Source of the DNA: Escherichia phage vB_Eco_K-02
Direction: 5' to 3' (one strand)
Sequence record: PQ436005.1
DNA length: 44,896 bases
Below, one piece after another: positions 39,634 through 40,228 of this stretch (the first letter of the stretch is position 1; each line of letters starts with the position of its first letter). A model generated the notes under the pieces. That model was not told the origin of the DNA and ran no database searches. It saw only the letters and a program-made list of their open reading frames with translations. Both the position numbers and the translations under genes were made by a program.

Positions 39634-39662
39634 TTGCACGCCCCAATATAATAGGGTACTAT
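39634..39662 (+). promoter_or_regulatory. sigma70-like promoter with conserved box (TTGCAC-N17-TACTAT)
   Basis: -35 39634..39639, -10 39657..39662. Confidence 0.6.
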
Positions 39663-39689
39663 TCATTCTATCGAACCGAGGAGGCCGTC

Positions 39690-39791
39690 ATGTTAGTCGT
39701 TATTTCAGTAGTAATTGCAGTTGATGTGGCGATGTTTATTTGGGCTTGTAGTGGTATCGGTGACATTGATACAGGTAATGGTGAACTATGA
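39690..39791 (+). CDS. 33-aa membrane peptide
   Basis: GAGGAGG SD; MLVVISVVIAVDVAMFIWACSG...; ATGA coupled to the lipoprotein gene. Confidence 0.35.
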   Translation: MLVVISVVIAVDVAMFIWACSGIGDIDTGNGEL

Positions 39792-40132
39792 AATATATTA
39801 AATTAGCAGTAGCAGGTGTTGTAGCCGTTTGTTTGAGTGGTTGCGTAAGGTCGTTGCCAGACCCAGCTTTACAGGTTTATCAGGCGGGGGATACAACGGC
39901 AACATGTAATCAGTTACTATCGAGAATCGCCGCGACAAAACAAGCTCAAGCCAACGCTACGCACCGTGTTAATAAGCAAATAGGTACTAACGTTGTACTC
40001 GGTGTTACAGGCGCATTCCTGATTGTTCCGCTGTTCTTTATGGACACGGGCGCCGGGCCTTCTATGGACGAGATGACAGCCGGTAATCGTCTGTCGCAGT
40101 TACAACAAACATACGACGAGAAATGCAAATGA
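39788..40132 (+). CDS. lipoprotein (candidate superinfection-exclusion factor)
   Basis: Signal peptide with lipobox LSGC; C-terminal hydrophobic segment; functional guess by analogy to phage Cor/Llp-type lipoproteins. Confidence 0.6.
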   Translation: MKYIKLAVAGVVAVCLSGCVRSLPDPALQVYQAGDTTATCNQLLSRIAATKQAQANATHRVNKQIGTNVVLGVTGAFLIVPLFFMDTGAGPSMDEMTAGNRLSQLQQTYDEKCK

Positions 40133-40204
40133 CAAATAGTGTGATGTTTTATTTTGTTTTGAGGGTATCGGCTGCGGCTATCACCGCGATGTTCATATAA
40201 AAAT

Positions 40205-40228
40205 AAAGCCCCATAGCGGGGCTTTTTA
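40205..40228 (+). terminator. rho-independent terminator
   Basis: aaagcccc-atagc-ggggcttt then TT. Confidence 0.75.

Follow-up and report, generated by a model that had tools for sequence, protein, structure and literature searches.

How a short run of plus-strand genes came to lie between the minus-strand Rz/Rz1 and Hoc-like genes of a phage, and what its products do there, is the question raised by a locus of Escherichia phage vB_Eco_K-02 (PQ436005.1; the whole stretch of 44,896 nt is called the window, and positions are those of the window). In an earlier note this locus had been taken for a two-gene cassette, unusual in its placement, encoding a lipoprotein that might block a phage receptor. 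The unit proved to be a moron in a cargo hot spot of the Guernseyvirinae. Its lipoprotein belongs to an undescribed and widespread family, marked by three conserved cysteines and by a hairpin whose hydrophobic tip is conserved, and the function that is favoured for it, tentatively, is superinfection exclusion at the envelope after adsorption. It is the family that is new; a moron-encoded lipoprotein that possibly excludes superinfecting phages is of a kind already known.

The inserted unit and its slot

The region is 99.8% identical to that of Escherichia phage vB_EcoS-phiEc4 and 93-97% identical to that of many other Kagunavirus (Guernseyvirinae) phages. It was compared in 180 related records, which are Guernseyvirinae phages of E. 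coli, Salmonella and Raoultella. A block of ~305-350 bp (39315 to about 39619-39665) upstream of the unit is present with 92-99% identity in 178 of them. In K1G the site is empty: the conserved block ends ...CTGGAATA (39612-39619) and is joined directly to the terminator before the Hoc-like gene. This places the start of the insertion at about 39620, so that promoter, genes and terminator together occupy about 39620-40244. In other phages the block runs on through the promoter motif to ...TACTATTCA (about 39665), after which the sequences diverge totally and various cargoes follow. These are a 67-amino-acid (aa) acidic protein in Bas71 and fEg-Eco06; a 179-aa protein in UTEC10, with a gene of equal size in the corresponding position of Salmonella phage SE479 (the protein is without a Pfam match, though its sequence looks HNH-like by eye); an open reading frame (ORF) of about 81 aa in RP180; a 33-aa peptide as the sole gene in K1H; the lipoprotein and a small ORF downstream of it, the 33-aa ORF being absent, in the metagenomic variant L074; and the full unit of three ORFs in 10 of 180 records, one of them the window. 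Behind one promoter there are at least six alternative cargo states, plus the empty site. Because the K1G site is empty, the cargoes are interchangeable and the unit has a promoter motif and a terminator of its own, it is a moron, that is, an autonomous accessory unit. Its placement is not unusual but that of a recurrent cargo hot spot.

All three ORFs of the unit are coding. The 33-aa peptide (MLVVISVVIAVDVAMFIWACSGIGDIDTGNGEL) has a hydrophobic helix at its N-terminus, an acidic tail and zero basic residues. Its TGA (39789-39791) is overlapped by the ATG (39788-39790) of the 114-aa lipoprotein precursor, as the earlier note had read from the ATGA. A third ORF had been overlooked there: it encodes a hydrophobic peptide of 23 aa (MTNSVMFYFVLRVSAAAITAMFI; 25 aa if the ATG at 40123 is the start) and begins with a second ATGA overlap, its ATG at 40129 lying on the TGA stop of the lipoprotein gene. 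Against L074, in which the lipoprotein is 82% identical, the lipoprotein gene has a nucleotide identity of 77%, a proportion of synonymous differences (pS) of 0.59 and of non-synonymous differences (pN) of 0.12 (pN/pS 0.21). The 23/25-aa ORF has 69% nucleotide identity, pS 0.89, pN 0.16 and pN/pS 0.18; in L074 it has the same frame, length and stop, and stops interrupt the other two frames. The 33-aa ORF and its homologue in K1H share 65% of nucleotides and 55% of residues (pS 0.62, pN 0.28, pN/pS 0.45), and length, hydrophobic N-terminal half and C-terminal GNGEL are kept. Judged by these substitution patterns, and for the lipoprotein also by its 514 or more homologous clusters, all three are real coding genes.

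The three genes do not travel as one. An obligate pair of 33-aa peptide and lipoprotein was ruled out by L074, which has the lipoprotein without the peptide, and by K1H, which has the reverse; since each occurs without the other, the two are separate modules. In the phage lineage neither lipoprotein nor 23-aa peptide has yet been seen without the other; they co-occur in 10 of 10 phage records with the lipoprotein and in L074. The 23-aa peptide was not found in any non-Kagunavirus context of lipoprotein relatives examined, and a pattern scan of IMG/VR with the 33-aa peptide matched only two known phage lineages. Neither peptide gave a significant match in Pfam, NCBIfam or PADLOC.

The boundaries of the unit had been described as a promoter and a terminator. 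The terminator was confirmed: a G+C hairpin with T-runs on either strand serves both the unit and the converging Hoc-like gene, and the same terminator is marked on both strands in the annotation of fBC-Eco01. Directly after it (40226-40250) lies a short tandem duplication, CTTTTTATCATTCCGG / CTTTTTATCATTCTGG, of which fBC-Eco01 and L074 have a single copy. The promoter is supported by a 35-nt motif, TTGCAC-N7-TATAATAGGGTAC-TATTCA, but a generic sigma-70 scan does not list it. The motif occurs at no fewer than five sites of the window, at 5507 and 6631 on the minus strand and at 30412, 39647 and 41807 on the plus strand, and every copy has an ORF or annotated gene after it in the same orientation. 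Exactly two copies of the 13-mer TATAATAGGGTAC are perfect (39647 and 41807), near-copies of it are commoner in the window than in any of 100 shuffles, and the leaders after the motif copies are alike (cttaYcgaacgaGGAG). In the unit TTGCAC (39634) is spaced by 7 nt from a perfect TATAAT (39647) and by 17 nt from TACTAT (39657). The motif is invariant in four phages with differing cargo, and divergence begins past TATTCA, at about 39666. It is because this conserved motif recurs upstream of ORFs and genes that a promoter is assigned here. The same consensus, in seven copies, was predicted by PHIRE as a phage promoter by the authors of fBC-Eco01. They credit it to a phage RNA polymerase; none is annotated in phiEc4, the closest relative.

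In the annotation of phiEc4, two of the motif sites are ahead of runs of small non-structural genes and one is ahead of a gene annotated as superinfection immunity protein. The latter corresponds to 30443-30661 of the window and matches Pfam Imm_superinfect (PF14373, E 1.8e-13). Since the same motif precedes these clusters and this gene, we infer that the unit belongs to a non-late promoter class, and that its transcription most probably depends on host RNA polymerase and falls outside the late programme.

The position beside Rz/Rz1 invites another explanation, in which the products manage envelope and lysis by stabilising the envelope or tuning holin and spanin, for instance as protection against lysis from without or as a delay of spanin fusion; incoming DNA would then not be their target. 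The three products are all small and belong to the envelope or membrane, a second hydrophobic element gives the lipoprotein a superficial likeness to spanin components, and the conservation of the family suggests a generic envelope partner. The adjacency, however, looks coincidental, as the slot has unrelated or no cargo beside the same spanins; the unit lies on the other strand, behind a non-late promoter motif, and relatives in prophages, islands and chromosomes lie outside lysis cassettes. This explanation is considered quite unlikely.

The lipoprotein and its family

The precursor starts with a signal peptide (residues 1-18) that reads MKYIKLAVAGVVAVCLSG up to Cys19, with the lipobox LSGC, as the earlier note had stated. 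In an alignment of 83 family members Cys19 is invariant, a relaxed lipobox pattern fits 65, and none has Asp at +2; the Pfam model LPAM_1 is matched by three family members. Lipoproteins of E. coli that lack Asp at +2 are sent by the Lol system to the outer membrane by default. The absence of this residue predicts the outer membrane as default destination, but the hydrophobic tip described below might hold the protein in the inner membrane instead.

The signal is followed by a loop (20-39) with a Q-x-G-D motif, in which D is invariant, Q is kept in 62 and G in 69 of the 83 members, by a helix (40-78), by a hydrophobic tip (69-85) and by a second helix (90-112). The tip is the best-conserved part of the family, with the motif N68-x-x-L-G-V-T-G-x-F-L-x-V-P-L-F-F-M-D86, which in the window protein is NVxLGVTGAFLIVPLFFMD. 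N68 is invariant, G75, P81, F83 and D86 are conserved in at least 90%, and F77, F84 and M85 occur in 65, 68 and 66 of the 83 members, respectively. R101 and L105 are likewise invariant or conserved in at least 90% of members, and the window protein carries all signature residues. Cys40 is invariant, Cys113 is present in 81/83 and is preceded by K in 62/83. The number of cysteines in the mature part is exactly two in 69 and even in 79 of the 83 members. Eight members have an added C-terminal SHOCT domain.

Sequence searches gathered 117 representative clusters of the family when grouped at 50% identity, and a profile search gathered no fewer than 514 at 90%. A scan of species-representative genomes gave 55 loci, in Proteobacteria, Planctomycetota, Omnitrophota, Nitrospinota, Deferribacteres and others. 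The only family match of the window lipoprotein is phrog_13472 (E 2.5e-44), to which a function is not assigned. With representative homologues included, no significant match was obtained in Pfam, NCBIfam or PADLOC, and weak matches to T2SSF, blaACC and Stx were rejected as noise or as matches of the signal peptide. A sequence profile search of the PDB with the lipoprotein gave no match, and neither did Foldseek against PDB and BFVD at E<=0.001.

An AlphaFold2 model built on the 83-sequence alignment (mean predicted local distance difference test score, pLDDT, 84.7) shows the loop, a 39-residue first helix, a turn that includes the end of the hydrophobic motif, and the second helix packing back on the first. 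The earlier note had placed the hydrophobic segment at the C-terminus, but it is internal. As a transmembrane anchor it was rejected because of its length of 17 residues (between N68 and D86), its flanking charges, the even number of cysteines and the modelled helix that packs back. Basic residues precede it and acidic ones follow, the opposite of what the positive-inside rule requires of an anchor with its N-terminus outside and its C-terminus inside. We would therefore argue for a fully periplasmic hairpin, with its tip predicted to lie in one membrane leaflet or on a hydrophobic partner. A periplasmic disulfide between Cys40 and Cys113 is hypothesized.

This topology also bears on the idea that the 114-aa protein, which unites an N-terminal lipobox with a second hydrophobic segment, is a unimolecular spanin like T1 gp11, reaching to the inner membrane and fusing both membranes at lysis. 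The segment is internal (69-85 of 114) and short, its flanking charges oppose the positive-inside rule, and after it comes a conserved helix modelled as packing against the first. Besides, a complete embedded Rz/Rz1 pair adjoins the unit (38819-39314) and the lipoprotein gene is optional within the genus. A spanin of this type is barely conceivable here.

Contexts of the relatives and proposed function

In P22-like prophages a relative is found directly after the ejection genes 7/20/16 and co-oriented with them in seven loci (Citrobacter loci L004-L006, locus L014 and the IMG/VR loci L078, L080 and L081); L079 and L082 probably share the gene-16 arrangement. In P22 itself the interval from gene 16 to gene 9 is occupied by sieA. 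This gene is always situated between 16 and 9, and in only 22 of 66 P22-like phages (PMC10883804). Its product stops the passage of DNA across the inner membrane, not adsorption (PMC10883804). The interval seems to collect envelope morons. Like the relatives, sieA is a stand-alone accessory gene (after 16, before mnt/9); it has an annotated promoter of its own, and in L004, which was read in detail, the relative is enclosed by its own A+T-rich promoter-like leader and terminator. The resemblance is positional only and holds for the relatives, not for the window gene: SieA, of 164 aa, is polytopic in the inner membrane, and its gene has the opposite orientation. With one cleaved signal peptide and one hydrophobic stretch of 17 residues, the window lipoprotein is not polytopic, and it matches no exclusion family in Pfam or PHROG, SieA features not having been searched in it directly.

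In these prophages sieA itself was not detected. BLAST with P22 SieA gave no match in one L004 ORF or in any called ORF of L078-L082, and the SieA motif FxRYPxEAxxFNK is absent from all six frames of nine loci, L079 and L082 included. A minus-strand ORF after the lipoprotein gene in the Citrobacter prophages was rejected as a SieA homologue (149 aa in L004; BLASTP E=0.43, motif absent). In L080 the next gene after the relative (5364-5837, minus strand) encodes another predicted lipoprotein, MKYVIAALPLLLVGC..., of 157 aa, which was judged unrelated by eye.

In Deferribacteres a relative immediately precedes three different defence systems in four loci: a type I restriction-modification system with a PIN protein; an SNF2 helicase/DUF4391/methylase/endonuclease set; and a helicase with an OLD-family nuclease. 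There the gene seems to mark a conserved border of a hot spot for defence cargo. In the loci L008, L009, L010, L075 and L076 the lipoprotein genes are near-identical, and differing defence systems follow ~100 nt downstream on the same strand. In an integrated element of this phylum, a relative follows traH/traG_N. Other contexts include an integrase neighbour in a small element, a McrBC or DUF3800 neighbour and a small plasmid. In lytic Aeromonas Autographiviridae (T7-like) the relatives lie among small non-structural genes upstream of the primase gene, with the whole architecture kept and the tip diverged. Neither the phage cassette nor the Citrobacter prophage gene was matched at the DNA level in 5,426 complete E. 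coli genomes. The plasmid collection gave only one match: CP088689.1 (44,086 bp, from an E. coli isolated from blood, filed as a non-mobilizable plasmid), in which the lipoprotein has 99.1% protein identity. This record, similar in length to these phage genomes, may be a Kagunavirus genome that was assembled with the clinical isolate.

The homologues in defence islands, together with two tiny hydrophobic peptides that resemble type I toxin-like peptides, could point to a membrane-active module for abortive infection, in which peptides and lipoprotein kill or arrest the cell on a trigger. PADLOC found no such match, though, and the peptides are absent from all non-Kagunavirus contexts. Moreover, the lipoprotein occurs alone in prophages under a promoter-like leader, which implies that its expression is tolerated. 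A toxic module is highly improbable.

Exclusion is the best reading because relatives are located at the sieA slot, after traG and beside defence systems, and because the promoter type is shared with the Imm_superinfect gene. Kagunavirus phages are small siphoviruses without an integrase and are regarded as lytic (fBC-Eco01 genome paper), and for this reason a role during infection is favoured over one in host fitness. In the proposed mechanism the three small envelope proteins would be made by coupled translation. The lipoprotein would be exported by Sec, lipid-modified at Cys19, cleaved by signal peptidase II and sent by Lol to the outer membrane, unless its hydrophobic tip retains it. It would stay periplasmic as a long two-helix hairpin, its two mature cysteines probably forming a disulfide there, and its tip would dip into a leaflet or grip a hydrophobic partner. 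Possibly aided by the 23-aa and 33-aa inner-membrane peptides, it would disturb the trans-envelope DNA conduit of an incoming phage. A protein receptor would not be masked, and the block would act after adsorption.

Several observations weigh against exclusion. Every source name of the family members is 'hypothetical' or 'lipoprotein', none of them being characterised, and the literature on Kagunavirus (BASEL), fBC-Eco01, P22 SieA and IncC Sfx holds nothing on this gene or family. Fold searches returned only generic antiparallel helical hairpins, the best of them the periplasmic adaptor alpha-hairpins of HlyD, MacA and EmrA at 3-11% identity; these matches describe shape, not ancestry. The helix lengths (39 versus 23 residues) alone do not bring Cys40 and Cys113 together. 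The promoter escapes the generic scan, as noted above, traG is the neighbour in only one element, and an Imm-type gene is already present in the phage. Conservation of the tip across phyla, unlike the fast evolution of known exclusion proteins, suggests a generic envelope partner. Finally, when 100 immediate neighbours from 52 genomes were scanned with Pfam, mostly housekeeping families were found, and an integrase lies within 8 kb at only about 4 loci; on these two results the idea of a family essentially borne by mobile elements was rejected.

The same surroundings would suit a general bacterial envelope lipoprotein that serves as a fitness or conversion gene, comparable with Bor, Iss and TraT in serum resistance or with membrane homeostasis, and that is opportunistic or near-neutral cargo in the phage. 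Most members stand alone on the chromosome amid housekeeping or envelope genes, MlaA and FadL among them, conservation is strong over the five phyla named above, and only the ten records mentioned, among 180 related phages, carry the gene. Host-fitness genes, however, are of little gain to a lytic phage, the gene is under purifying selection in the phage lineage (see its pN/pS), and unrelated elements have repeatedly acquired the family at exclusion or defence positions. Host fitness is considered an unlikely role.

Exclusion may also be conceived more broadly, with the phylum-spanning hairpin lipoproteins providing envelope immunity in general. The tip would jam a membrane-insertion step shared by trans-envelope DNA conduits, be they formed by phage ejection or tape-measure proteins or by conjugative channels, and the 33-aa and 23-aa peptides would be extra, independently mobile inner-membrane exclusion modules. 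This would explain capture by a lytic siphovirus, P22-like prophages, T7-like Aeromonas phages, a conjugative element and defence islands; in so wide a form the idea is rather unlikely.

Comparison with known exclusion systems

The exclusion lipoprotein proposed in the earlier note had been likened to Cor and Llp. Of that proposal the moron and the lipoprotein signal stand, and exclusion is the function best supported by the contexts of the relatives. A relationship to Cor or Llp did not emerge: Pfam gave no match and phrog_1119 (Cor) only E=0.31 over residues 1-36, a match to the signal peptide alone, no direct pairwise comparison having been made. Cor (phi80, N15, HK022) and Llp (T5) are likewise small phage lipoproteins from accessory genes, with the same expected gain of a protected infected cell or progeny. 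Both bind FhuA, whereas the window lipoprotein is modelled as a helical hairpin with a hydrophobic tip and its family extends far beyond phages. In receptor masking of the Cor/Llp type, the outer-membrane lipoprotein would bind the phage receptor, block adsorption and spare the progeny from cell debris. The predicted outer-membrane sorting and the moron architecture agree with this, and T5 Llp, too, is made by a lytic phage. Masking is nevertheless very unlikely. O-antigen or capsule glycans are required by Kagunavirus phages and are recognised via tailspikes, and a protein receptor is not known (PMC11990801). The relatives in P22-like prophages belong to O-antigen users as well, and a near-invariant tip across phyla fits poorly with one receptor protein. 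The claim of receptor blocking is left unsupported by this glycan recognition and by the step at which SieA acts.

Closest in mechanism to the proposed exclusion, alongside P22 SieA, is Ltp of Streptococcus thermophilus phage TP-J34, which is described in two papers as lipid-anchored, helical and extracytoplasmic and as blocking DNA injection post-adsorption via the tape measure protein (PMC10883804, PMC3952083). It differs in its Gram-positive host and in its helix-turn-helix-like repeats, it lacks a hydrophobic tip, and a relationship in sequence was not detected. TraT, TrbK and Sfx are mobile-element lipoproteins that exclude incoming DNA, to which the relative after traH/traG_N may be compared; TraT also has internal hydrophobic segments. 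The Pfam models of TraT and TrbK did not match any of the 83 family members at E<=0.01, Sfx (286 aa) is unrelated to the window lipoprotein, and the one gene in a traG context also borders defence cargo. T4 Imm is an exclusion gene product of a lytic phage and is a small inner-membrane protein, not a lipoprotein. The window phage encodes its PF14373 protein under the same motif as the unit, and that family is unrelated to the lipoprotein.

Neighbouring genes and significance

The features of the unit and of its surroundings are collected in Table 1. An Rfam scan of 38700-40800 did not find an RNA family.

Table 1. Positions of the inserted unit, of its neighbours and of a second plus-strand unit in the window
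Feature	Position	Strand	Remarks
Promoter block, left end of insertion	39620-39665	plus	TTGCAC 39634-39639, TATAAT 39647-39652, TACTAT 39657-39662
Shine-Dalgarno GAGGAGG	39678-39684	plus	strong; 5 nt ahead of the 33-aa ORF; read from the sequence
33-aa membrane peptide	39690-39791	plus	ORF listing
114-aa lipoprotein precursor	39788-40132	plus	ORF listing
23-aa hydrophobic peptide	40129-40200	plus	ORF listing; 25 aa from ATG 40123
Bidirectional intrinsic terminator	40205-40225	both	G+C hairpin, T-runs on either strand
Major capsid gene	36983-38032	minus	
Scaffold gene	38032-38790	minus	
Embedded Rz1/Rz spanin genes	38819-39082 and 38928-39314	minus	
Hoc-like Ig-domain head decoration gene	40245-40706	minus	converging on the unit
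Head-morphogenesis gene	40706-41806	minus	
Imm_superinfect (PF14373)	30443-30661	plus	
Metallophosphoesterase	30595-31830	plus	
PNKP-type HAD phosphatase	31827-32315	plus	
Weak AAA_18-like protein	32315-32869	plus	

Two more plus-strand units have the same promoter motif. One (30443-32869) lies within the minus-strand tail module and looks like an exclusion gene with genes resembling those for RNA or nucleotide repair. The other (41750-42174) lies between the head-morphogenesis and portal genes, and its 94-aa ORF (41851-42135) has no family match. This segment is without a counterpart in phiEc4 and so represents a second variable moron slot. On the minus strand of the conserved block (39315-39619) there is a promoter-like site, TTGACT-17-(TG)A-TAAGCT (about 39567-39535), followed downstream by ~190 nt of predicted structure and by a GC hairpin (39358-39339, with one compensatory pair) directly before the Rz ribosome-binding site. 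The arrangement is reminiscent of lambda PR'/6S/tR', in which a late promoter is followed by a short leader and a terminator. A 36-aa minus-strand ORF (39409-39519) is annotated in this block in some records.

Envelope exclusion proteins of phages decide which phages co-infect or succeed one another, which is of relevance to phage cocktails, and Kagunavirus phages are candidates for therapy as well as chassis for synthetic biology. The locus shows how a single slot equipped with a promoter is reused in Guernseyvirinae and how the 33-aa peptide and the lipoprotein are exchanged independently of each other. Should exclusion not be the role of the family, the unit is an ordinary accessory gene cassette. 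If the lipoprotein does exclude DNA, it would represent a new and easily recognised class of exclusion factor, placed at the sieA slot of the examined P22-like prophages without detectable sieA, and a function would be provided for more than 500 clusters of 'hypothetical' bacterial lipoproteins.

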